Of a DNA stretch of 64,000 bases, positions 18,561 through 51,507 are shown piece by piece. The stretch is from positions 32,001 to 96,000 of the forward strand of contig CAVVYZ010000019.1 in the NCBI GenBank assembly GCA_963752595.1, in the 5' to 3' direction. A program made the translations under genes and the position numbers. The DNA is from an uncultured delta proteobacterium (GTDB taxonomy: Bacteria > Desulfobacterota > Desulfomonilia > UBA1062). The notes beneath the pieces were generated by a model that was not told where the DNA came from, did no database searches, and saw only the letters and a list, made by a program, of their open reading frames with translations. Positions within the stretch are counted from its first letter, which is position 1. Each line of letters opens with the position of its first letter.

Positions 18561-20824
18561 TCTTCCAGCATCATTTCGAGCCCCTTGTCTCTTCTCGAAG
18601 ACCATGATCTTGTATTGTCCGCCCGCCCTGAACGGGCCGCTCAATTTCAATTCCAGCATACACGATGAGCCCATAGGAAATGACCAGGCGATGTCCCGCT
18701 CCTGCGGCTTGCCGAACTCGATGGAATAGAGCCAGGATGCGGAATGCCCGAGGAAGACGCAGGCAACCGCATAATGCTCGAAATCCATATCAGGCGCAGG
18801 CTTATCGAAAGCGCGCTTCCAGAGCCCGGCCCATTCCTCTCTTCGTTCCAACCACCTTGACGAACTCTTCTTTCTGGTCGGAAGAATTCCCCTCCCAGGT
18901 GATGCCGCCATAGGCTTTTGGCGAGCCTTTTTTCTCCAGGAGGCCCGTGACTGCGGCATGTCCGCCCTGGAACGCATAGGCCCAGGCTGTCCTGCCCTGC
19001 TTGTCCTGTGCGCGACGTTGCTTCCCTTTTCCGAGCAGGATCCGCACGGTTTCGGCTTCACCCCTTTGCGCGGCCATGATGAGGGCGGTTTCGCCCTTGT
19101 CATTGGCGGGATTGCAGTCCGCCCGGTTCGCCAGGAGCAGCTTGACCGTCTGCAGCTTCGCCTTGTCGAACGAATCCACCGCAGCCATCAGGGCCGTTTT
19201 CCCCTCGGCTGTCCTGTGCATTGACATCGGCGCCCTGCGACGAGGAGGTACTTCACCATGCCGGGTTCGCCGGCTGCTGCATACATGAGCGGGGTCTTGC
19301 CGTCCGATCCGCGCTCATTGACATCCGCACCCTTTTCCTTCAACAGCCTCACCAGCTCTTCGCTGCCGGCGATGACCGCCGAGGTCAGCGCGCCCGTGGA
19401 TTTGAAATCGGCCCCCTTCTCGATGAGGAACCGCACCATGGGGACATGCTTGTTCAGAGATGGCCGTATCCAGGGCCGTGTCGCCGTTTTTCGATCTTGG
19501 CGTTTATGCGGGCGCCTTTTCCGACCAGGGCCTTCACGGTCCCGACGTCTCCTTTTTCGCAGGCATAGATGAGGGCGGTCTTCTGCTCCTCATCCTGTGC
19601 GTTCGCATCGGCGCCTTTGGCCAGCAGCAGTCCGGCGATCTTGAAAGCCCCTTCCTCGATGGCCATGATCAGGGCTGTTTTCCCGTCGTCATAGCGTTCA
19701 TCGACCTTTGCGCCGTTGTCGAGCAGGAGTCTCACCATCTCGATGTGTTTATTCAGGACCGCGTAGATGAGGGCATCCCCACCGCTGATATTTTTGATGT
19801 TCACATCTGCTTTGCTCTGCAGAAGCATCTGTCGCGACTTTCGCATTTCCCTTTACCGAGGCATGGATCAAGGCCGTGTCGTTGGTGCCGTTTTTCGCGT
19901 TTACATCAGCTCCCTTATTGATCAGGAATCGCGCGATGTCGGGCCTGTTCCTGTCCGCGGCATACATGAGCGGCGTGCTGCCGCTCTTGGTCCGTGCATT
20001 TACGTCCGCGCCTTGTGCCACCAGGGCCTTCACCGCATCGAGATTGCCTTGCTTTATCGCGTCGATCAGCGGCTCGGGCGAGGTCTTTGCCTGCTGCGGC
20101 GATCCGCTCGGGTGGCCTGCGGTCGCTTCGAGCAGCTGGACAATATATTCCAGCCCTTCCTTCTTCGCCAGGGACAGGGCGGTGTCTCCTTTGCTGTTCT
20201 GCAATTCCGGCTTGGCGCCCTTGGCAAGCATGGCCTGGACCAGTGCCGCGTCTCCCTGGGCCACCGCGAACATGAGCGGCGTCATGCCGGATTTCAGCCA
20301 GGATTCATCCTGCACATTCACGTCGGCGCCGTTATCGAGCAGGAGATAGACAGTCTTCTTCTTATCCCCGACAGGGCCGAACTGAACCGAGAAGTGGTCG
20401 CATGCCGCAAGCAGAGGCGTGAGGCCTTTGCGCCTGGCGTTCACGTCGGCTCCCTTCGAGATGAGGTATTTCGCTACTTCCACATGCCCGTAGGCAGAGG
20501 CCTCCATCAGCGGAGTACTGGCCTCGTCACCCTTTTCCCCGTCGATGGCCGCGCCGTGCTCGGCGAGCAGCCGGACGATCTCGACGTTCCCGTTTCTGGC
20601 GGCGGTCGCCAGCGGGGTATAGCCGTAGTTGCCCTTCTCGTTTATTCTCATAGCTGCCGGGAGCACTGCGAGGATCGATTTCACCTCTGCGACAGTCGCC
20701 TTTTTTCACGGCCTCGAGGAGAGGGGAATCCGGAGGCGGCATGATCTCCGTGCACATGGCTGCCTGAGAAAAGAGCAGCCGGCAGGATGGCAAGGATCAA
20801 TGCAAGGGCGTGTTTTCCTTTCAT
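18560..20824 (-). CDS. Large exported ankyrin-repeat protein with non-ankyrin C-terminal domain, multiple frameshifts
   Basis: MKGKHALALILAILPAAL start at 20824; many G.TPL..A...G...V..L...GADVN repeats across ORFs 19749, 19454, 19188 and 18802; 3' end approximate. Confidence 0.75.
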
Positions 20825-22067
20825 TTGCTTTTTCCTCCGTCTTCAAGGCATTTTCTGCATTCCTCTTCTGTCTCGAAGGGCACGACTCCGCCACAGCCGC
20901 CCCAGAAGAATGCCTTGCAGGTCTTGCTGGCAGGGTCGTAGTAATACCGCTCGAACATGGCCTTGCACGGCCCCCGCTCGGGTTTCAGCGAGCATCGTTT
21001 TCCCTGGCGGGGTCGTCGAGAGAATCGAATACGCCGCCCCAGCGGTCATCCTGTTCTTCTTTGACTGCCCCTGCCTCGCGCGGGAGGCCGGTGGAGACAT
21101 CGACGAAGATGTCGTCCTTGAAGGAATATTTCCCGGTATAGCTCACCACCTGGATGTATGCCTTTTTGTCTTTGAAGAAATCCTCTCCACCCGGGTAGAT
21201 CCCGTCCAGGTCTTTTCTTCCTTCACGATGAGCGGCCGATGTGCTCGCGATGACGGGGATGTTCAGGCACAGCGGCCTCTGGCCGTAGGGCCTCTGCGCT
21301 TCCGGGTGCTTTTCTTTGTAGAGCGCGCCGCTGTACGGGTCGAGCGGCTCGTTGCCGGGAAAGCACAGGGTGACGGGCGCGATGATGATCAGCTCTATGC
21401 TGCCCTGCCCGCCGAAGGTGTTCGAGGTCTTCAGCGGGTAGTACAGCTCCTTGCTCTTGAACCGGTACGCCACCGGCTCGATGAAGCGTGTTTCGGTGCG
21501 ATACTTCTACATAATCGAGGACAAAGTAAACGAGCCCGCGCTTCACGTAGTCATTCACCACAGCCTCTTCCTCCGGATACTTCTCTTTGGCGGGAAGACC
21601 CTTGGCCTTGAAGTACTTATTCACCCACTGCCTGAACGTGGAGACGTCGTTGACCTTGATGACGGTCATGTCATGGGCCCCGAGCTTTTTGTTCAGGCGA
21701 AGCTCGACGCCTTCTGTCTTCGGAGCGGGGAGCCGCCTTTCGTATAATGAAGATACTGATATTTCAGTCCGTACTTTCTTGATCATGGCCGCTGCCTTGT
21801 CGAAGGCGCCTGCGGGCGCCAGGCCGACAGCCGGCTCGGAAGGGAAGGGGATGAACCGGATGATCCCGGTCTTTTTCGAGGCCTTGAGATCGGTGCCCAG
21901 GATCAGGACCTCTTCGGTGAGATTGTGCAGGATGATGGCCTTCTGGCTAGTCCTCGCTCACCGTGACCGGTTCATTGCTGACATAGACTCTGCCCATGTC
22001 GGCTCGGGCGGTGAAAGACAGGCTGAGCGAGAAAACCAGCACGGGGAAAAGCCCTGACGAAATACAT
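20821..22067 (-). CDS. Exported DUF2330-like protein with C-terminal BPTI/Kunitz domain, frameshifted
   Basis: QKAIILHN.TEEVLIL..IIRFIPFPSEP, LGAHDMTVIKV, YRFKSKELYYPLKTS (DUF2330 likeness is inference); last 60 codons read RCSLKPERGPCKAMFERYYYDPASKTCKAFFWGGCGGVVPFETEEECRKCLE. Confidence 0.7.
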
Positions 22068-22070
22068 ACC

Positions 22071-22862
22071 TTAAATATTCTGCCCATTCATTTCTCCGAT
22101 ATGCTTTTTTAACAGCTCAATCACTTCCTGCTTATCGTTCAGGATAGCCAGATCTAAGGCGGTGTTGCCCCTGTTATCCTGCATCTTCACGTCGGCCCCG
22201 GCATCGATCAGCAGCTTCACGATCTCAGCGTGTCCCTTTGTCGCGACCGAATGAATCGGCGCGTCACCGAATGCACCTTTGGCATTCATGTTTGCGCCAT
22301 TTTTAATGAGGATTTTTACTATTTCCGTGTACCCTCCATCCACGGCAACGTGAAGAGGGGTATCGCTTTTATTGTCTTTGACATTGACATCCGCACCTTT
22401 TGAAATGAGGAGCTTGAGCACTGCCGGATTGCCCCACCGGCAGGCTTGCCGGAGCGGGGTATATCCATAATTGTTTTTCACATTCACATCACTGCCTTTT
22501 TCAAGGAGGATTCTTACAATTTCTTCGAGCCTCTGATGGACTGCAACATACAGAGGCGTGTTGCCTTCCCCATTCCTGGCGCTCACATCTGCGCCGTGCT
22601 TTATCAGCACTTTCGCAGCCTCGGTCTGTTGGAAGTGAATTGCGGTATGTAAAGGGGTGATGCGGTATTGTTCATCACTGATAGTAATATCCGCGCCTTG
22701 TTTTATAAATTCCTCAACAATTTTCGGGTTTCCATTGCCGCCACCCAGATACGAGAGAAGGGCCTGCGATGGAGATTCCCCTTCAGCCGCAGCGCAATTG
22801 ACGGCGAACAGACCGATGGCAAGAGCCGACACAAATATTATTTTAAGCATTCCCATCGCCAT
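22071..22862 (-). CDS. Exported ankyrin-repeat protein
   Basis: Signal peptide followed by about six TPLH-type repeats, intact frame. Confidence 0.9.
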   Translation of the reverse strand: MAMGMLKIIFVSALAIGLFAVNCAAAEGESPSQALLSYLGGGNGNPKIVEEFIKQGADITISDEQYRITPLHTAIHFQQTEAAKVLIKHGADVSARNGEGNTPLYVAVHQRLEEIVRILLEKGSDVNVKNNYGYTPLRQACRWGNPAVLKLLISKGADVNVKDNKSDTPLHVAVDGGYTEIVKILIKNGANMNAKGAFGDAPIHSVATKGHAEIVKLLIDAGADVKMQDNRGNTALDLAILNDKQEVIELLKKHIGEMNGQNI

Positions 22863-28598: not shown

Positions 28599-29891
28599 TC
28601 AGTTCTGTCTTTTTACAGCCGCTTCCTGCTTGATGGCGGCCAGGATGGGTTTGAGTACCTCGATGCGCTGGCGGCACAGGACAGAGAACTCCCGGTCAGG
28701 TGCAGGGTCGCCCTGTCCCTTTTCCACTATGGCTTGAGCGCGGTCTTTTGCCTGTTCGGCCTGCCCGCTCAGATCCAGTATCGACTTTTCGATGCGGGTT
28801 GCCAGTGCCGGCAGTTCGTCACCGGTTTTTTCCTTCAGGATTCTCGTCAGCGATCTGTTCTTTGCCTCCAGCAGCACGCCGTTGCTCCATCGCAAAACCT
28901 CGGACCTGTCGGCACCCGAGAGATCAGGGGTCTCGATGAAATCCTCCAGGGGAGCTTCCTCGACAGCGCGCACGACCACCTTGGCGGGCACGCCGTTTTC
29001 CATGAGGACACCCACGGCGGTCAGGGCCTTTACCGAACGCAGGTACCCGGTCACCGGGTGCCAGGCTCCGGTCTCATCACGCCGGGCCACGATCACTTCA
29101 TCCAGAGGCTTTAACCCGCGTCTGGGATAATCCTTATATATGAGTGCGGTAAAACTGTCAGCGCTGTTCAGTTTTTGGGAGAGTGAGGGGGCGAGGTAGC
29201 TCCAGCAATGCCGGCCGTCGATCGTGACCTCCTGCAGGCGCGTTCTCCGCACCTGGTAGTCGTTCGCCAGTCCGGCCTGATCTGCCGTGCGAAGGGATTT
29301 TACGACCGCCTCGACGTGGCAGTTGGTTCTATAATCTCCCTGCTTGGCGGTGGCTTTTTTGATGTTTTCTTCAAAGTTGATGAATAGAATTTGATAGTCC
29401 CTCGGCAGGTCCGATGGTCCGACAATCGGCAGAAGGCCCAGTGGGCCCAGAATGGTCATCCACTTGACCTCTTCGAATTCAAAGGCGACCTTTCCGGCCG
29501 GTACGCTTTCTCCCAGGGCATTTATCAGTCTGGTCTTCACGTTGTACGTGGTCTTTTCCGTGCCGGGAAAGGGTATCATCCCCAGGCTGCAGAAACCTGT
29601 CAGAAAAGCCGCGCGATTCATTGATGAATCATGGCTGAAATCAGTCTCGACCACCACCGGCAGGCCGGTCCACTCGTCCGTAAACAGGTTGGGATAGAGT
29701 TCCCTGGAGCGTACAGCGAGTGTCTCATCTTTCCCATCGAGGCTTACGATACTGAAGCGCACGTCGCCCATTTGCAGTGTCTTGTCGCCCGAAGGCTTGA
29801 GTGTGCTTACGTAGCGTGTCGAAGCACAGCCGCTCAAAGCGCTGAGTATTAGTACCGCTGCCAGCCATGTCACAGTTGTTTGAAATTTCAT
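28599..29891 (-). CDS. Lipoprotein paralog 3 of tandem triplet
   Basis: Lipobox LSGC; shared C-terminus LRWSNGVLLEAKN..GDPAPDRE.SVLCRQRIEVLKPILAAIK. Confidence 0.85.
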   Translation of the reverse strand: MKFQTTVTWLAAVLILSALSGCASTRYVSTLKPSGDKTLQMGDVRFSIVSLDGKDETLAVRSRELYPNLFTDEWTGLPVVVETDFSHDSSMNRAAFLTGFCSLGMIPFPGTEKTTYNVKTRLINALGESVPAGKVAFEFEEVKWMTILGPLGLLPIVGPSDLPRDYQILFINFEENIKKATAKQGDYRTNCHVEAVVKSLRTADQAGLANDYQVRRTRLQEVTIDGRHCWSYLAPSLSQKLNSADSFTALIYKDYPRRGLKPLDEVIVARRDETGAWHPVTGYLRSVKALTAVGVLMENGVPAKVVVRAVEEAPLEDFIETPDLSGADRSEVLRWSNGVLLEAKNRSLTRILKEKTGDELPALATRIEKSILDLSGQAEQAKDRAQAIVEKGQGDPAPDREFSVLCRQRIEVLKPILAAIKQEAAVKRQN

Positions 29892-29906
29892 CCCGGACTC
29901 CTTCTC

Positions 29907-31241
29907 CTACGGTTTTCCGGCCGCAGCATCCTTTATGGCGGCCAGGATGGGCTTGAGCACCTCGATACGCTGGCGGCACAAGACTGACAGCTCCCGGTCA
30001 GGCGCAGGGTCGCCCTGGCCCTTTTCCACCTTTGTCTGCGCGCTGTCCTTGGCCCGCTCGGCCTGCTCGCTCAAATCCAGGATCGATTTCTCGATGCGGG
30101 TTGCCAGGGCCAGCAGCTCTTCACCGGTTTTTTCCTTCAGAATTTTCTGTAGTGATTTGTTCTTTGCCTCCAGCAGCACACCGTTGCTCCAGCGCAGGGT
30201 CTGGGCCTGGTCGGCTCCGGAGAGGTCCGGGGTTTCGATGAATTCCTCCAGAGGCGGCTCGTCGACAGTTCTCATCGCCACCTTTGCTGGGACGCCGTTG
30301 TCCATGAGGACACTGACAGCGGTCAGGCTCTTTGCACGGCGCAGATATCCGGTCTCCGGCATCCAGTTGCCGCTGCCGTCGCGGCGGGCTACGACTACCT
30401 CTTCATATGGCTTTGTTCCGCGCTTCGGCTGCACCTGGTACAGCAAGGCAGTGAAGGAAACCGGCCGGCTATTCTCTTTCGAGATATTCGGCGCGAGGAA
30501 GCTCCAGAAAGTGCGTCCGTCGATGGTAACCTCCTGGAGGCGTGATGCACGTGCCTTGTAGGCAGTATCAAGCAGGGCGGGATCTGCTGAACGAAGGTCC
30601 TTGACCACCGACTCGACGATGCAGTCGGCTACAAAGGTCGGGAGCTTGGTCTTTGAATAGGCATCCTCGGTCAGCGGGAAAAAGAGAAAGATGCCGTCCC
30701 GCGGCAGGTCAGCCTGTCCCGGGACCGGGATGCAGCCCAGCGGTCCGATGAGGCTTATCCACACGGCCTGCTCAATCTTGAATTTCGTATCCTTGGTGAT
30801 CAGGCTTTCGCCCAGCGCATTGCGCACATCCGAGGATACCGAGAAGTCCATCGTAATCTTCCCGGGGAAAGGGATCACCCCAGCTGTCAGTGCTGTCAGA
30901 AATGCCGATATCATCATCGAAGTCTCAGAGTACTCGGCATCGGCCTTGATCATTACCGGCAATGCCGTCCATTCGTCCGTGAAAATATCGGGGTAGAGGG
31001 TCCTGGCCCGCTGAGCCAGAAAATCCGGGGTGACAGGGTCCATCCAGGCCCCTGCCGGTAAACTGTTCTTGTCGTAAACGCCGGTATAGCTGATGAGGCT
31101 GAAACGTGCATGGCCGAGCGCGAGGTTCGTTTCGCCCGAGGGCTTCAGGGTGCTTGCCAGGCGCATCGAGCCGCAGCCGCTCATAAACATGACCATCAGG
31201 ATCATTATCATCCATTTCAAAGTTGCCCGGTACGCTTTCAT
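29907..31241 (-). CDS. Lipoprotein paralog 2 of tandem triplet
   Basis: Lipobox MSGC; same conserved C-terminus. Confidence 0.85.
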   Translation of the reverse strand: MKAYRATLKWMIMILMVMFMSGCGSMRLASTLKPSGETNLALGHARFSLISYTGVYDKNSLPAGAWMDPVTPDFLAQRARTLYPDIFTDEWTALPVMIKADAEYSETSMMISAFLTALTAGVIPFPGKITMDFSVSSDVRNALGESLITKDTKFKIEQAVWISLIGPLGCIPVPGQADLPRDGIFLFFPLTEDAYSKTKLPTFVADCIVESVVKDLRSADPALLDTAYKARASRLQEVTIDGRTFWSFLAPNISKENSRPVSFTALLYQVQPKRGTKPYEEVVVARRDGSGNWMPETGYLRRAKSLTAVSVLMDNGVPAKVAMRTVDEPPLEEFIETPDLSGADQAQTLRWSNGVLLEAKNKSLQKILKEKTGEELLALATRIEKSILDLSEQAERAKDSAQTKVEKGQGDPAPDRELSVLCRQRIEVLKPILAAIKDAAAGKP

Positions 31242-31339
31242 TGCCCCTCCTCTCTTCTCATCGGGTAATTCTTATGTCGGTTTTTCCTTTAATATCCCTT
31301 AGCCTGGTACATCGGAGTGCAGGCTCATACGCTTCTTCT

Positions 31340-32644
31340 TTACTGTTTTCCGGCTGCAGCACCCTTGATGGCAGCCAGGATCGGCTTGAGCACCTCAATG
31401 CGCTGGCGGCACAGGACTGACAGCTCCCGGTCGGGTGCAGGGTCGCCCTCTCCCTTTTCCACCATGGCCTGGGCCCGGTCCTTGGCACGCTCCGCCTGTT
31501 CGTTCAAGTCAAGGATCGACCTCTCGATGCGGGTCGCCAGGGTGAGCATCGTGTCCCTGCTTTCCTCCCGCAGCAGCTTGTCCATGGAGCGATTCTTGGC
31601 GTCGAGCAGCAGAGAGTTGCTCCAGCGTAAGACCTCGGCCCTGTCGGTCCCGGGCAGGTCCGGGGTATCGATAAAGTCCTCCAGGGGGGGCACTTCGGGC
31701 GTGCGCACCACCACCTTGACCGGGACGCCCTTCTCCATCAGGGGGCTCACGGAAGTGAGCGTGCGTGCGCGGCGCAGGTATCCGGTCACCGGCTGCCAGT
31801 GGCCGGATTCGTCGTAGCGTGCCACGATTGCCTCATCCATGGGCTTTGCACTCTGCCTGGGGTAGTCCTGGAATACGAGCAGACTGAAGGTGCTGCCCTT
31901 TTTGGGTTTGGTCACAGGGGTCATGGTGAGGAAACCCCGGCACTGCCTGCCGTCGACGGTGATCTCCTGCACGCGGGACTTCCTCTCCCGGTAGGCGGCT
32001 TCCAGCTTGATCTGGTCTGCCGATTTCAACGACCGGGCAACCGCCTCGGCAATGCACCCGGCTGCGTGGTTGTTGACCTTGTTTATCGAGACATCGGTCC
32101 GGCTCACGAAGTCTCCGCCAAAGAGACTGTCCCTTTCGAGATCCGAGAACCCGGGAACCGGTATCAAACCCCAGGGCCAGTAGCTGCACCACTCGATCAC
32201 GTCTATCTCGAAGTTGTCGTCTTTCTCGTACAGACATTCGCCTAGAGAATCCATTATGCTGGTACGGACGGTAAAATCATGCTTGTAGGTCTCGGTGGTC
32301 GGTATAATCCCCAAGGTGCAGACAAGGGTGAAAAACTTGCTGAAACCGGAAGGGTTGATGTCCGATCTTTTGATATCTACATGAACCGGCAGGCTTGCCC
32401 AGTCGTCCGAGAATACACTCGGGTAGAGGGCTTTTGCCTTCTGGTCGATAACCGGAGGCAACGGCTGCACACCCGGCTTCTCGTAGTTGAAGCTCGACAT
32501 GGTGAGACGCACGGGGCCGTATTGCAGGTCCTTGTCGCCCGAAGGCTTCATGGTGCTGGTGTACCGTGCCGCGCTACAGCCGCTCAAAACCATGGCAACC
32601 AGGAGCAATACCATTCCTATGACATATACACGGCAGTTCCTCAT
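31340..32644 (-). CDS. Lipoprotein paralog 1 of tandem triplet
   Basis: Lipobox LSGC; same conserved C-terminus. Confidence 0.85.
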   Translation of the reverse strand: MRNCRVYVIGMVLLLVAMVLSGCSAARYTSTMKPSGDKDLQYGPVRLTMSSFNYEKPGVQPLPPVIDQKAKALYPSVFSDDWASLPVHVDIKRSDINPSGFSKFFTLVCTLGIIPTTETYKHDFTVRTSIMDSLGECLYEKDDNFEIDVIEWCSYWPWGLIPVPGFSDLERDSLFGGDFVSRTDVSINKVNNHAAGCIAEAVARSLKSADQIKLEAAYRERKSRVQEITVDGRQCRGFLTMTPVTKPKKGSTFSLLVFQDYPRQSAKPMDEAIVARYDESGHWQPVTGYLRRARTLTSVSPLMEKGVPVKVVVRTPEVPPLEDFIDTPDLPGTDRAEVLRWSNSLLLDAKNRSMDKLLREESRDTMLTLATRIERSILDLNEQAERAKDRAQAMVEKGEGDPAPDRELSVLCRQRIEVLKPILAAIKGAAAGKQ

Positions 32645-33263: not shown

Positions 33264-33300
33264 TTGACAAGATATTAAATCATGAGTAGAATTATATTCA
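33264..33300 (+). promoter_or_regulatory. Sigma70-type promoter with overlapping palindromic operator
   Basis: TTGACA (33264)-17 bp-TAGAAT (33287); TGAGTAGAATTATATTCA (33283-33300) is self-complementary at 14 of 18 positions. Confidence 0.65.
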
Positions 33301-34346: not shown

Positions 34347-35525
34347 ATGAGTGAGGACAAAAGAGCAAAAATATTAGCTTCCGCCGAAGAAATCATGTCG
34401 GAGAAAAGGCTCGCGGATACCACAATTTCAGAAATAGCCGCCAAGGCAGGGGTAGCTGATTCGGTTATTTATCAATACTTCAAAGGCAAGGAAGATATAT
34501 TGTTTTCCGTGCCTGGCGAGAGGATGAAGGAAGTATTATTTTTGCTTGGAGAGCATCTGCAAGGCATTCGAGATGCTGAAAGCCGCTTGAGCAAGATGAT
34601 CTGGTTTCATTTAAGGGACATAGATACTCACCCCGGATATGGCCGAATATTGCTCCTGGAGTGCAGATCTTCACCCGACTTCTATATGACGCCGGCTTAT
34701 GATCTCGTAAAGGAATATTCGGATGTCCTTTATACTATATTAAAAAATGGCGTCGAGGATGGATCATTTCGTTCTGACCTGAATGTCAAAATAGCCCGAG
34801 ATATCATACTCGGCACTCTTGATTCGGAAATAATAAGCTCTCTTGCCTTGGGCGAGATTGCAGAAGGCGCTCCGGACCATGAAGATATCATGTCATTAGT
34901 TCATGCCATGGTTACCTCGACGGCCAAGCCGATCTACAGTAAATCAGACAGGATCCTCAGGGCAGCCGAAAAAGTTTTTGCCGAGAAAGGATTCACCAAG
35001 TCGAAAATATCTGAAATTGCAAAGATTGCCGGGATCTCAGAGGCAACAGTATATGAATACTTTGAAAATAAAGAGGATGTTTTTCTCTCTATCCCTCAGA
35101 AACGCTTCCAGGAAAACCTGGATGAACTTTCTGAAACATTCCATATAAAGCATCCTGTGAGGAAACTGAAAAGGTTTACTAAATACTATTTCTTCCTTCT
35201 TCTTACAGAAGAAGATTTCTTGAAAGTTTTTCTTCTTCAGCTCCAATTGAGTCCGCGGTTTTATGCCTCAAAATCATTCGCGAGCTTCCGGAGATATTTT
35301 TCTGTAGTTGAAGGAATCATAGAAGAAGGCAAGAAAGAAGGATATTTCAGAGCCGATGTAAATCCTCGCGTATTCAGAAATATGTTTTTTGGTGCGTTCA
35401 CTCATCTGGCACTTCGATGGGTAATGTCTCAGGATGGAAAAGAACCTGACAAAATAAAAGAAATAAAACACGCAGCAGATTTGTTCTGTTCGGCAGTTAT
35501 GGCTCTTGATGGTGATGAGGATTGA
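34347..35525 (+). CDS. Tandem (double) TetR-family regulator
   Basis: Two HTH units: TISEIAAKAGVADSVIYQYFKGKEDI and KISEIAKIAGISEATVYEYFENKEDV. Confidence 0.9.
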   Translation: MSEDKRAKILASAEEIMSEKRLADTTISEIAAKAGVADSVIYQYFKGKEDILFSVPGERMKEVLFLLGEHLQGIRDAESRLSKMIWFHLRDIDTHPGYGRILLLECRSSPDFYMTPAYDLVKEYSDVLYTILKNGVEDGSFRSDLNVKIARDIILGTLDSEIISSLALGEIAEGAPDHEDIMSLVHAMVTSTAKPIYSKSDRILRAAEKVFAEKGFTKSKISEIAKIAGISEATVYEYFENKEDVFLSIPQKRFQENLDELSETFHIKHPVRKLKRFTKYYFFLLLTEEDFLKVFLLQLQLSPRFYASKSFASFRRYFSVVEGIIEEGKKEGYFRADVNPRVFRNMFFGAFTHLALRWVMSQDGKEPDKIKEIKHAADLFCSAVMALDGDED

Positions 35526-35608
35526 AGCAATGTTTTCAAATCAGACTCGGCTTTTATCAGGAGAGAAAAAAAGGAATTCGATAAAAAAGAGCTAAAACGT
35601 AGTCAGAT

Positions 35609-35712
35609 AGGGTTCTGCCTAGAGCCGGCCAACTCGAAGCGGACGTAAGAACGATATAAGCGGGCATTGTGGGAGCCTACATAACCACAATGCCCGCTTT
35701 TTTGTTGCCCTG
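35609..35712 (+). promoter_or_regulatory. Structured leader/attenuator element, copy A
   Basis: Hairpin with CCGGCCAA loop, GGACGTAAGA, then terminator AAGCGGGCATTGTGG..CCACAATGCCCGCTT plus T run; homologous to 50578-50684 (-). Confidence 0.7.
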
Positions 35713-35794
35713 ATGAAGGTAAGGGTACGTATTTCATAGGTATTTAAGCAAAAATAAAAATTGATCCGTCAAAGAAAATTAAGGGAGAAAAAAA

Positions 35795-37009
35795 ATGAAC
35801 AAGAAAGATGATGTCGTAATCGTAAGTGGAGTGAGAACACCATTCAGCAAGTTTGGCGGAACCTTGAAAAATATTCATAGTACAGATCTGGGTTGTGTAG
35901 TTATCAAAGAGAGTCTCAAGAGAGCAGGACTCAAAGGCGAAGATCTGGATGAACTGTACTACGGGATGTGCGATCAGGCAGAAGCGGCCCTTTATGATAA
36001 TGTAAACGGGCGACAGGCATTACTTCGCGCAGGCCTTCCTCAAACCCTGGTGTCACTCACTATAGACAGGGCGTGCTGTTCTTCGCTCTGTGCGGTTCAT
36101 CTTGGAAGAAGAGCGATTTTATTGGATGAAGCAAATGTGTGTATGGCAGTGGGCGCCGAGAACATGGGCAATACCCCGCTATTGATAAACGGACATCGGT
36201 GGGGAGGAGGGATGGCGCCGCTTCTGGTTCAAGATTATCTCAATCCCATCACCTATCGGGAGTATTCTCCTTTGGGAAGAGACGCCGGAGAGATCGCAAT
36301 TGAATATGGAATATCACGGGAAGAGCAGGACAAATGGGCGGTGGGTTCACAGCAGAAGTGGGCCATGGCTGACAAAGCGGGAAAATTCAAAGATGAGCTT
36401 GTGCCGGTAGAAGTACCACAGAAAAGAGCCGACCCGATCCTTTTTGACAGGGATGAGTTCCCGAAGCCGAATACCACTCTGGAAGGTCTGGCAAAATTAA
36501 AAACCATATACGGAAGCCCTACGGTAACCGCCGGTAATGCTCCGGGGCTTGATACAGGAGCTGCCGCAGTGATTATCATGAGGAGATCCAAGGCGGAAGA
36601 GCTGGGCGCTAAGCCTCTTGCCACCATCATTACAGCAGCCAGTGCCGCCAGTGAGCCAAGGAGAATGGCTGAGCTTCCCGGATTCGTAATACAGAAAGCT
36701 TTGAAGAGGGCTGACCTCAGTATCGATAAGATGGACGTTATTGAGATCAATGAGGCCTTCGCGGCAGTTACCCTTGTATCCACCAAGATTCTTGCCGGAA
36801 ATGATGAAACCAAATGGCGTGAGCTCCTGAAAAAAACGAATCCTAACGGCGGTGCAATTGCGATCGGCCATCCGGTTGGAGCAAGCGGGGCACGAATTCT
36901 GATCACGATGATGCACGAGTTGAGGAGAAGGGGCGGCGGTTATGGAGTGTGCGGTATCTGCGGTGGTCTGGCACAGGGTGATTGTGCCATCATCAAAGTG
37001 GATGAATAA
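35795..37009 (+). CDS. Thiolase (acetyl-CoA acyltransferase)
   Basis: RTPF, DRACCSS, TAGNA, EINEAFA, GHPVGASG, CGGLAQG. Confidence 0.93.
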   Translation: MNKKDDVVIVSGVRTPFSKFGGTLKNIHSTDLGCVVIKESLKRAGLKGEDLDELYYGMCDQAEAALYDNVNGRQALLRAGLPQTLVSLTIDRACCSSLCAVHLGRRAILLDEANVCMAVGAENMGNTPLLINGHRWGGGMAPLLVQDYLNPITYREYSPLGRDAGEIAIEYGISREEQDKWAVGSQQKWAMADKAGKFKDELVPVEVPQKRADPILFDRDEFPKPNTTLEGLAKLKTIYGSPTVTAGNAPGLDTGAAAVIIMRRSKAEELGAKPLATIITAASAASEPRRMAELPGFVIQKALKRADLSIDKMDVIEINEAFAAVTLVSTKILAGNDETKWRELLKKTNPNGGAIAIGHPVGASGARILITMMHELRRRGGGYGVCGICGGLAQGDCAIIKVDE

Positions 37010-39800: not shown

Positions 39801-41256
39801 ATGCCGATGATGAACGCGAAGCAGTATGAAGAGTCTCTGAGAAAACTGAACCTTAAGGTATACATGTTCGGCAAGAGGGTGGAGAACGTGGTGGACGATC
39901 CGATCATCCGGCCGTCCATGAACGCGGTTGCGGCGACCTACGAGTTTGCCCACAAGCCGGAATATGAGGATATCCTGACCGCCAAGTCGCACATCACGGG
40001 CAAGAAGATCAACCGGTTCACCCACATACACCAGAGCGTGGACGACCTGGTGAAGAAGAGCAAGATGGGCAGGCTCATGGGCTCGCTCACTGCCTGCTGC
40101 TTCCAGCGGTGCGTGGGCATGGATGCCATGAATGCCCTGTCCATCACCACCCATGCCATCGATGCCAAGTACGGCACCAAGTACTACAAGAGGTTCCTGA
40201 AGTATCTGGAATATGTCCAGGAGAACGACCTGGTCTGCGACGGGGCCATGACCGACCCCAAGGGCGACCGGTCATTGTCTCCGAACAAGCAGTCAGACCC
40301 GGACATGTTCCTGCACATCGTGGAGGAGCGTCCGGACGGGATCGTGGTATCGGGCGCCAAGGCCCACCAGACAGGTGCCGTGAACTCCCACGAGATCATC
40401 GTGATGCCCACTATTACCATGCGGGAGGAGGACAAGGACTATGCGGTGTCGTTCGCGCTGCCGAGCGATGCGGAAGGCATCACCTACATCATGGGCCGCC
40501 AGTCCTGCGATACCCGCAAGCTCGAAGGTATGACCTTTGACCGGGGCAACATGTTCTATGGCGGTCATGAGGCGCTCGTTGTGTTCGATCGTGTCTTCGT
40601 GCCCTGGGAGCGCGTGTTCATGTACAAGGAATACGACTTCTCAACCATGCTCGTGGAAAACTTCGCCTCCTATCACCGCCAGAGCTACGCGTGCAAGGTG
40701 GGTGTTGGAGACGTGCTCATCGGCGCTACCCAGACCGTTGCCGAGTACAACGGTGCCGAGCGGGCCTCCCATGTGAAGGACAAGATCATCGAGATGAACC
40801 ACCTGAACGAAACGCTCTTCTGCGGCTGCATCGCCTGTGCTGCAGAAGGCCACCGGGAGCCGAGCGGAACGTACCAGAACGATCTGCTGCTTGCCAATGT
40901 GCACAAGCAGAATATCACCCGGTTCCCCTACGAGATCGCCACGGCTGGCCCAGGACATTGCGGGCGGCCTTGTGGTGACCTGCCCGTCCGCCCAGGACCT
41001 TTCCTCTCCGGAGACAGGCAAGTGGGTGGATAAATACTTCAAGACCAAGGCAGACGTCCCCACGGAACACCGGATGCGGATCTTAAGGCTCATCGAGAAC
41101 ATCACCATGGGCACCGCCGCCGTGGGGTACCTTACCGAGTCCATGCACGGTGCAGGCTCACCCCAGGCCCAGAGAATCATGATCGCCAGGCTCGTCAATA
41201 TGAAACAGAAGCAGAAGGTGGCCAAGTTCCTGTGCGGCATCGACAAGGAAAAATAA
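39801..41256 (+). CDS. abfD: 4-hydroxybutyryl-CoA dehydratase/vinylacetyl-CoA isomerase family (frameshift near 40940)
   Basis: CFQRCVGMD, AMTDPKGDRS, GAKAHQTG, YHRQSYACKVG, ESMHGAGSPQAQ. Confidence 0.88.
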
Positions 41257-49199: not shown

Positions 49200-50270
49200 C
49201 TATTTCAGATAGCCCATTGTTCTCATGTAATTCTTTGTCATCTCCACGAGCTTGGCCGATGCGGGGCTTCTTTGTGCCTCTTTCGCCCACAATTCCTGGG
49301 CAGCCTTCTCGGCTTTTGCCAGCTCTGCGCCACTGAGTGTGTTCATTTTTACCCCGGCCTTTTTCATCTGGGCCAGACCCCACTGCTCACCCGTCCAGTT
49401 CTGGTGGTAAGTATGGTTCAACCCGGCGATGATCATTGCCTGCTCAAGGGCTACCTTGAGGTCGGCAGGCAGCGAGTTCCATGCCCTCTGGTTCACGATC
49501 ACGTTAGCAGTGTTGATGGGCATGATCGGGGGCCACAGGAAGTACTTGGCAACTTCATGGAACTTCACGCTGTGCATTGCAATAGCGCTGCCCCAGCTCA
49601 CCCCGTCGAGGGCGCCAGTCTGAAGAGAGGTATAGGTTTCTTCGCCGGGGATAAACACGCCGTTGCCGCCGAATTTCTCGATCCAGTTCATCATCAGACC
49701 GGATGCCCGGACCTTCTTGCCCTTGATATCGTTGAGGGTGTTGATGGGAGTTCTGAACATGAATGAGCCGGGCCAGCAGTCAACACCGGTGGTGAGCAGA
49801 TATACGCCCTGTTTTTGATATTCCGGCCTCAGTACGTCGATTGCCCGCCAACCGCCGAAGATGTTCGGCAGCTTCTTTCCATACATGAAGTTGTACAGCT
49901 CGTTCGGGGTCCTGATTCCGAAAGGAAGACCGTACTCTACGGCTGCTGCCGGAATGACGCCCTGATAGGTATAAGCAGACGCGAGGCCGATCTCAACAAC
50001 GCCCATCTTCACGGAATCCAATATATCCGGGGTTGCCACCAGCTCGCCGCCCCAGTACATTTTGATCTGCAGACGCCCGTTTGTCATGGCGGGAAGAGTT
50101 TTGGTGAGCATCTCTACGTAATATTGCATCCCGGGCTCAGCGGCGCTGCGCCATGCCTGCATCTTCCACTTGTAAACTTTCTGCGCAGGTTGCGCAGCAT
50201 CACATGGAAAAGAGCTGCTGAGGAATACCGCTAAAGCTAGAAGCACAATCCCTAGAACCTTGTTTTTCAT
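49200..50270 (-). CDS. dctP: TRAP substrate-binding protein
   Basis: Signal peptide, TNGRLQI, DIKGKKVR, YTSLQTGALDG; GGAGG before ATG 50270. Confidence 0.92.
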   Translation of the reverse strand: MKNKVLGIVLLALAVFLSSSFPCDAAQPAQKVYKWKMQAWRSAAEPGMQYYVEMLTKTLPAMTNGRLQIKMYWGGELVATPDILDSVKMGVVEIGLASAYTYQGVIPAAAVEYGLPFGIRTPNELYNFMYGKKLPNIFGGWRAIDVLRPEYQKQGVYLLTTGVDCWPGSFMFRTPINTLNDIKGKKVRASGLMMNWIEKFGGNGVFIPGEETYTSLQTGALDGVSWGSAIAMHSVKFHEVAKYFLWPPIMPINTANVIVNQRAWNSLPADLKVALEQAMIIAGLNHTYHQNWTGEQWGLAQMKKAGVKMNTLSGAELAKAEKAAQELWAKEAQRSPASAKLVEMTKNYMRTMGYLK

Positions 50271-50577: not shown

Positions 50578-50684
50578 CGCCGGGCAACAAAGAGAGCGGG
50601 CACTATGGTAATGTGGGCTCCCACAGCGCCCGCTCTCTTTGCTCTTACGTCCACCCCGGGTTGGCCGGCCCGGAGTTGAACCCT
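50578..50684 (-). promoter_or_regulatory. Structured leader/attenuator element, copy B
   Basis: Reverse complement reads AGGGTTCAACTCCGGGCCGGCCAACCCGGGGTGGACGTAAGAGCAAAGAGAGCGGGCGCTGTGGGAGCCCACATTACCATAGTGCCCGCTCTCTTTGTTGCCC. Confidence 0.7.
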
Positions 50685-51507
50685 TTATTCCCTAATCGTT
50701 CATTCCGTCATGAAAACTCCTCTGTCCTCATGCATTGCCGTCTATTTCCCAGCCGTCACTAGTACGGTTCTTCTGCCCCTTCACAACGGAGCACAGGAGA
50801 TCCGTCACGTGATTAAGTTCTGCAGCTAACGGCTTCCCTGCTATCCGGCAACTATTCATATGGGCGCGGAACGCCCCTTGGGAGAATTCATTCTGCGGAA
50901 ATACATCACGGCTTGAGCCATCTTTAAGGGTTATACGGCGAGTGAGCATTTCGATATCTGCTGCGAAGGAACAGATAGTAGGCTTTAGTATACCCTTGTA
51001 ATTTTTATTAGCATTAATAATGTCATGTTGTTGCATTGAACCTGCCCTTCTCTCCTCTATATCGGGATGGGTCATCTTGCCAAAACCAACAACAAGCTTT
51101 GAATCCATATCAAATCAATAATGTGATTTGATAAATTTATAGATCAATAGTGAGATTCGGTCAATACTTATTTGTTTTAATTTTATCACTTATATTATTC
51201 TCTGTTTTATCATGTAGTTGTTTATTTTCTTCATATCTAGAGTCCCTTTTGTGTCATTGTTTAACCTGAATTTTATTTTTTTTGGAAGGTTATCGAGTGA
51301 TCATGTTGGCTTTTCTTCACCATACCGGGCCAGGAGAACAATAAGGAATCAAGGGTTCTTCCCAATCGGTTCTTCTCCAAATAATGCTTGATTTGGGAAT
51401 AAAGGTAAATATTGACTAATCTTCTGCAACTGCTTACAGATAATGATGCCCTCTCCCATGCTCATCAGTAAAAGGAGAGATGCTTGGGGCAGACTGAAAA
51501 AATGATT

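Follow-up and report, generated by a model that had tools for sequence, protein, structure and literature searches.

Background

The timing of virion genes in phages that have no Q-like or sigma-like regulator is largely an open question. The nearest known kind of control to that considered here is represented by the P4 CI RNA, with seqA and seqC, and by IsrK of Gifsy-1, in both of which, according to the accessible part of PMC4825925, a longer phage transcript is acted on in trans by an RNA derived from its own strand and leader; short IsrK raises the long transcript approximately 8-fold and activates translation. ANTAR targets are described, in the accessible portion of PMC3369931, as a pair of hairpins with hexanucleotide loops, in each of which position 1 is A and position 4 is G, joined by a linker of about 5-12 nt. 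Palindromic DIS loops and GACG tetraloops are both reported as retroviral dimer linkages (accessible sections of PMC516450). The element described here occurs twice in the window, i.e. the whole 64,000-nucleotide stretch of DNA that was analysed, and many more times in phages.

Two copies in the window

The element is a real, structured RNA, absent from Rfam and placed in cis. Copy A (35608..35712, plus strand) is a three-way junction (P1/P2/P3), supported by covariation, with an embedded predicted terminator, and copy B (50580..50685, minus strand) lies 5' of dctPQM; the R2 model scores them at 93.3 and 80.3 bits, respectively. They make up the longest inverted repeat among those listed for the window, with 81 of 101 aligned bases identical (blastn E 8e-15), and each folds better than all 200 of its shuffled versions (z -4.5 for A and -6.1 for B). 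The 4.12-Mb genome to which the window belongs contains these two copies only. The U-tract of copy B is poor (CUCUCUUUGUU) and weaker than that of copy A.

A preliminary description of this DNA, made from its letters, had reported a shared repeat of ~105 nt on opposite strands, both copies being 5' of and co-oriented with the two arms of one catabolic cluster (which begin with thiolase and dctP, respectively), and swaps of paired letters between them (GAG/CTC versus GGG/CCC; ATTGTGG/CCACAAT versus GCTGTGG/CCATAGT), all of which proved correct. The blocks that it called invariant are so between A and B only; beyond these, AGGGTTC, GGACGTAAGA and GTTGCCC have been lost from the element in three relatives (G006, G007 and G008), in which P1 and the junction are also lost, and TGTGGGAGCC, the same in A and B, is highly variable across the family. 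It had noted the terminator but neither helix X nor the palindromic loop, nor the outer stem, which closes beyond the U-tract.

That description had also recognised no riboswitch or ANTAR/RAT consensus. The Rfam 15 scan places the element in no family: over the whole window a tRNA alone was matched, and an E-value scan of copy A returned 10 weak matches, none near the gathering threshold. Twenty viral loci of the family gave no Rfam match, and a further scan of 12 loci gave one weak, unrelated match. The 5' end of tRNA-Tyr resembles the start of the element; it was set aside, the stem lengths being different. A presumed likeness to the c-di-GMP-I, ykkC, SAM-I and pistol motifs finds no support in Rfam. 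A literature search revealed no description of the motif. None of three short motifs looked for occurs in the covered part of the supplements of PMC10690425, a paper in which the family may yet figure among unnamed candidates.

Copy A lies in the gene order hbd - tandem tetR - [A] - thiolase - hydratase - acyl-CoA dehydrogenase - abfD-like gene. The tandem TetR-family regulator (34347..35525, plus strand) has two Pfam TetR_N domains and a TetR_C_4 domain, and the thiolase gene (35795..37009, plus strand), which is the first behind copy A and has its ATG at 35795, is followed by genes for an enoyl-CoA hydratase, an acyl-CoA dehydrogenase and an HpaB/abfD-family protein. The last of these (39801-41033, continuing to ~41250) is frameshifted near 40940, with its C-terminus in another frame, owing either to an assembly error or to its being a pseudogene. 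A motif, GATCCGTCAAAGA (35764-35776), lies between copy A and the thiolase start and is kept in G003, G004 and G007. Upstream of copy B are ribBA-ribH-nusB and an ORF of 126 aa (50728-51108, between nusB and copy B) with no Pfam match; downstream, dctP (49200..50270, minus strand; likely ATG at ~50270) is followed by dctQ, dctM, Fe-ADH, MaoC, SDR and acyl-CoA dehydrogenase genes.

The best of 27 scanned promoter-like sites, in a scan that overall ran at chance level (27 sites versus 23.7), is a sigma-70-like site before hbd (33264..33292, plus strand; TTGACA-17-TAGAAT, 11/12), and no site was listed between tetR and thiolase. Copy A is therefore probably reached by read-through, the hbd promoter being the likely source of the transcript that crosses tetR.

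Elsewhere in the window are three tandem paralogous ORFs of 430-444 aa (28599-32644), of which the one scanned had no Pfam match and a lipoprotein-like start, and coding repeats with a spacing of ~99 nt (19025-22522), which we take to be ankyrin-like. The same genome carries, on contig C9 (L520 1279-1779), a second NusG-family gene of 166 aa, a possible specialised antiterminator.

Extent of the family

In DNA searches, the thiolase-associated element turned up, again 5' of that gene, in six further genomes. Five belong to the same genus; the sixth (G069) is from a different genus and has usp instead of tetR upstream. The element before dctP was also found in G004. A model built from these nine sequences revealed divergent copies in prophage-like contigs and in a metagenome contig, 5' of genes for capsid, scaffold and tail proteins. 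IMG/VR was then searched in eight pattern scans, from which all family counts are lower bounds, and the union rose to at least 161 distinct sequences. One of these scans gave 55 loci, of which 53 proved to belong to the family; according to the proteins that they have in common, these form 24 groups. The family is uncatalogued and mostly phage-borne, and is found mainly in head and tail operons. Chromosomal copies occur in two unrelated families, the second represented by G315 and G372 with two intact copies each, which have catabolic genes upstream and, downstream, the gene of a secreted protein without a Pfam match that we read as porin-like. Genomes carry one to three copies, in sense orientation.

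The distribution is patchy, with matches in 12/122 genomes of the class and 5/150 of the phylum, four of these matches being false. R2 matches in G029, G098, G111 and G249 were dropped, as they lie inside long ORFs; L536, L538 and L541 were dropped as chance matches, and the weak matches L315, L186, L322 and L362 were likewise discarded. A pattern scan of the genome collection with two of the blocks from the preliminary description gave 30 loci and no homologs. Scanning metagenomes by pattern gave 92 stretches, with five true members among the 80 loci listed, and the cultured-phage collection yielded no match to the one phage member used as query.

Several members differ in their details. Two contigs (L424 with L430, and L443 with L459) carry two copies each with different B codes, one copy being 5' of a scaffold-like gene and the other 5' of a helicase gene. 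The phage copy at L330 1873-1925 has the junction and L1, with the whole terminator hairpin absent, and is either a natural constitutive variant or an assembly slip. In one phage group (L326, L327, L368, L371, L385 and L404) extra short GC-rich hairpins flank the element on both sides. Among the 30 loci of the genome-collection scan is a structured repeat of a Methanoregulaceae archaeon, present in duplicate, with an outer closing stem and containing CCGGCCAAC and GGACGTAAGA (L020 2501-2524 and 4650-4673, minus strand; L007 2493-2516), next to secreted-protein genes, one with a weak DUF4114 match; neither Rfam nor R2 matches this repeat.

Predicted structure

In copy A the 5' strand of P1 (35608..35612, plus strand) pairs with 35708-35712, past the U-tract, and its outer pair is kept in 36/42 sequences against a shuffled mean of 15.5. 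Since this 3' partner lies beyond the U-tract, we infer that P1 can close in read-through RNA only. The P2 hairpin (35614..35643), defined by folding and covariation, presents the L1 loop CGGCCA (35626..35631), whose palindromic GGCC core makes it a candidate homodimer kissing loop, and is followed by the conserved junction strand CG(C/U/A)AAG (35644..35649). The predicted intrinsic terminator hairpin, T, with its U-tract occupies 35660..35706 (U-tract 35698-35706). Within its limits lie helix X (35663..35677; GGCA with AGCC, 3/4 pairs in copy A), the loop of which carries segment B, and H2 (35668..35681), which consists of segment B (35668-35672), GAGC and segment B' (35677-35681). H2 is either a 5-bp cis hairpin or the trace of an intermolecular kiss between X loop and T loop. 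One molecule can hold only one of X, H2 and T because they share nucleotides. X and H2 as a single pseudoknot were rejected on geometry, as the linker nucleotides appear to be absent.

Covariation supports the predicted helices P1, P2, P3, T and X, and the pairing of B with B'. Over the junction and H2 of 43 sequences, 88.4% of cells are paired versus 69.0% after shuffling, a control inflated by relatedness, and 17/23 pairs have changed on both sides. The basal pair of P3 is found in 79/79 members (A-U 52, C-G 24, G-C 2, G-U 1), its 3' letter having been partly fixed by the pattern. Pairs 1-5 of H2 are kept in 104-109 of 111 members and pair 6 in 17, its loop is GUGC (65), GAGC (31), GGGC (10) or GGAC (5), and RNAalifold recovers it unaided. 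The same loop contributes a base to T, with matched swaps in 103/111 (U-A 64, A-U 24, G-C 13, G-U 2; 8 unpaired). Helix X has all four pairs in 94/111 members compared with 52.1 after shuffling (0 of 3000), its matched swaps being GGCA/UGCC, GGCU/AGCC, AGCA/UGCU and GGUC/GACC. G-U pairs favour the sense strand. The U-tract has at least six U in eight nt in 43/43 sequences, and this side is 82% U (318/387) compared with 59% A (227/387) on the 5' side, which argues that the U-tract is selected for itself.

The median energies of X and H2 are nearly equal (-4.95 and -3.85 kcal/mol), and T is far stronger than either (about -25 to -43 kcal/mol). H2 is weak when alone, with a median probability of 0.01-0.13 in nascent folds. 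In the lineage of the window, X has three pairs (-1.8 kcal/mol in copy A) and the T loop has 12 nt in both window copies. An elemental-pause signature after X was looked for in family members, and no conserved one was found.

Complementary and palindromic loops

The loops were compared across the family of at least 161 members, leaving out nine that have no H2 and 14 whose X is imperfect. The lengths of the X and T loops match, being 6/6 in 99 members and 7/7 in 20, and where both are 6-7 nt they are fully complementary in 120/122 cases versus 6.4% of non-cognate pairs, although this complementarity is partly built in since an H2 of at least 4 bp was required of each row. The independent evidence for pairing of X loop with T loop is the length match together with X alone. 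There are 56 distinct X loops.

Early patterns fixed L1, and rescans without it gave 79 members, in which the core is GGCC in 57, GAUC in 12, GCGC in 1, GACG in 4, GGCA in 4 and GGCG in 1, the 22 non-GGCC rows having been registered by hand. The core is palindromic in 70/79 and is not a 4-nt palindrome in the other nine. It passes from GGCC to GAUC or GCGC through double changes, and no central single mutants were seen among the 79. Members with GAUC are interspersed with those having GGCC in a tree that is poorly resolved, and in the 12 of them GAUC occurs nowhere else inside the element. A cis pseudoknot between L1 and H2 was rejected, since changes of L1 are not matched by changes in the H2 loop and, within the element, there is no partner for GAUC. 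Copies A and B are identical in L1 and in segment B.

Proposed mechanism

From these patterns we propose that the element works as a self-activated antiterminator and needs no protein: copies already completed would kiss nascent ones, hold X and block termination. This is the reading we favour, with a confidence that stops a little short of one in two. The nascent RNA would fold X first, displaying B in a loop of 6-7 nt. In an RNA on its own, B' would invade the X loop in cis to give H2, freeing the 5' strand of the terminator, and T would then form, so that termination would be the default. When the RNA is abundant, whether from numerous phage genomes or from derepression of a promoter, a molecule already completed would dock by an L1-L1 kiss, its T loop acting as a decoy B'; X would be locked, the 5' arm of the terminator would be unavailable, and polymerase would read on into capsid, tail or catabolic genes. 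In the window, the thiolase operon would be induced more sharply owing to copy A, and because A and B share L1 and B, induced A RNA could act on copy B as well and open it ahead of the transporter genes.

The broader proposal is that of a natural RNA quorum switch needing no protein, with L1 homodimers and a finished T loop kissing the nascent anti-terminator loop, by which capsid and tail genes would come on above a threshold of self-RNA, its level being a proxy for genome copy number. Bacteria would have captured this switch for catabolic and transport operons, which the captured copies would sharpen and cross-couple. We put this forward as a tentative proposal, plausible but on balance doubtful.

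Several points speak against self-activation. The B/B' complementarity is equally explained by H2 in cis, and a cascade in cis accounts for X, H2 and T. With no conserved pause signature after X, the time available to a partner in trans is unaccounted for, as is the role of a junction that closes after the U-tract. The lineage of the window has X weakened to three pairs and T loops of 12 nt, 9/79 L1 loops are non-palindromic, and G006, G007 and G008 are without P1 and junction. The same parts might constitute a purely cis device, in which X, H2 and T fold in succession and this cascade determines how much transcription leaks past the terminator, either at a fixed level or depending on speed. 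The junction formed on read-through would then serve, with the A-rich 5' flank, as a processing site or 5' stabiliser for strongly expressed genes downstream. The three helices can indeed form sequentially in one molecule, the outer pair of P1 and the basal pair of P3 covary although each is completed only beyond the point of termination, the A+T content of the 5' flank is 75% versus a background of 45%, the downstream genes encode high-copy products, and the phage copy L330 has the junction without the inner hairpin. Such a device would leave unexplained why the L1 core stays palindromic as it changes two letters at a time, and so strong a terminator before capsid genes would be costly without regulation; we consider it unlikely, if still a serious contender.

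Genes behind the element and other explanations

Orientation is consistent across the family: a sense ORF starts within 350 nt downstream in 105/111 members (median ~30 nt), the other six having a flank of only 27-241 nt. Among 55 downstream phage and prophage proteins scanned, 24 have virion-assembly names (capsid, scaffold, portal, protease, adaptor, major tail, tape measure), one is a helicase, and 30 are of unknown function, unassigned or unmatched. Upstream proteins gave a head, packaging or connector match in 10/12 cases. No shared regulator was found within 10 kb among 53 phage loci, and 117 small upstream ORFs gave a single weak Q-like match.

In a protein-dependent antitermination with an ANTAR-like layout, a host or phage protein would bind L1 with H2 (or X) and block T; this would suit the two hairpins, the second of which overlaps the 5' arm of the terminator, and the weakness of H2 alone, for which help would be needed, and the own genome does encode a NusG paralogue. 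The letters of the H2 stem vary freely, however, L1 switches between palindromes, the loops and linker do not follow ANTAR rules, and no regulator common to the phage loci was found within 10 kb, so that we regard this explanation as rather unlikely. The 24 phage groups carry the same RNA and no common non-structural protein within 10 kb, and the RNA is also present on chromosomes of two unrelated families, which would fit a device that works without a partner.

The preliminary description had called the element a cis-acting attenuator that might respond to acyl-CoA or carboxylate status. The attenuator stands insofar as the RNA is cis-placed, absent from Rfam and composed of an intrinsic terminator with a competing fold. 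The acyl-CoA or carboxylate response is unsupported, since most relatives precede phage scaffold, capsid, portal, protease and major-tail genes, and no CoA enzyme is named among the 55 scanned proteins. More generally, a small-molecule riboswitch with a terminator-embedded aptamer, sensing acyl-CoA or a global signal, would fit the conserved junction nucleotides, the two copies in one catabolic cluster and the alternative folds inside the terminator, as in the HMP-PP riboswitch (accessible part of PMC6478431). We judge it improbable, as the downstream genes, dominated by virion functions, have no metabolite in common, the conserved junction needs strands transcribed only after the U-tract, and the letters of L1 and H2 are variable. 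Were the element simply a terminator of the usual kind that spreads as a mobile repeat, with template-switch mutation keeping its palindromes, this would agree with the patchy matches, some of them false. That view is very improbable and largely refuted by the covariation of three mutually exclusive helices, the retained G-U pairs and C.A mismatches, and the one to three sense-oriented copies per genome.

Should the self-activated antiterminator prove true, an RNA of 100 nt would read its own concentration and couple late expression to copy number without a protein, which would account for its sharing among unrelated phages and its adoption by hosts, and the 56 or more natural loop codes would be orthogonal parts ready for use. 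If the trans model proves wrong, what is left is still an RNA family new to the catalogues, in which three helices covary and exclude one another.

Comparison with known systems

As in the HMP-PP (thiS) riboswitch, a conserved alternative fold is embedded in the terminator (accessible part of PMC6478431); here, in contrast, thiamin precursor genes are absent nearby, there is no Rfam match, and the loop letters vary. The element likewise resembles ANTAR targets, as set out in the accessible portion of PMC3369931, in having two hairpins with the second overlapping the 5' arm of the terminator. In place of hexaloops with A1 and G4, however, L1 is mostly YGGCCA and the second loop is GUGC, GAGC, GGGC or GGAC, the linker measures 24 nt in copy A (35644-35667) instead of about 5-12 nt, and there are an extra helix X and an outer P1; the preliminary description had rightly recognised no ANTAR consensus. 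A scan for ANTAR proteins gave no matches in the own genome, the 14 control genomes being equally silent. L1 recalls the retroviral dimer-linkage loops of PMC516450 (accessible sections) in being a self-complementary hairpin loop, with the GACG variant in 4/79 members, although those loops dimerise genomes for packaging whereas L1 sits in a bacterial transcription leader.

Like P4 CI and IsrK, the element would provide an RNA from the same strand as the leader that acts on its own transcript. With P4 CI the outcome is termination, and IsrK works chiefly at the level of translation, whereas the effect proposed here is antitermination; the palindromic docking loop and the X/H2/T triad are absent from the account of CI and IsrK in the accessible part of PMC4825925, and the element matches no C4-type Rfam models of antisense RNA. 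In the pT181 attenuator (accessible part of PMC4878617) a trans RNA kisses a nascent leader loop and decides intrinsic termination, as is proposed here. That RNA is a separate antisense RNA which switches expression off, whereas in the element both loops lie on one sense RNA predicted to switch it on. The minus-strand promoter-like site nearest copy A (36143-36116) reaches 9/12, in the scan that ran at chance level (27 versus 23.7). Complementary loops of the pT181 type are present in 120/122 cases, both on the sense strand, and the element, if our reading is true, would be the natural activating counterpart of kissing-loop antisense attenuators.
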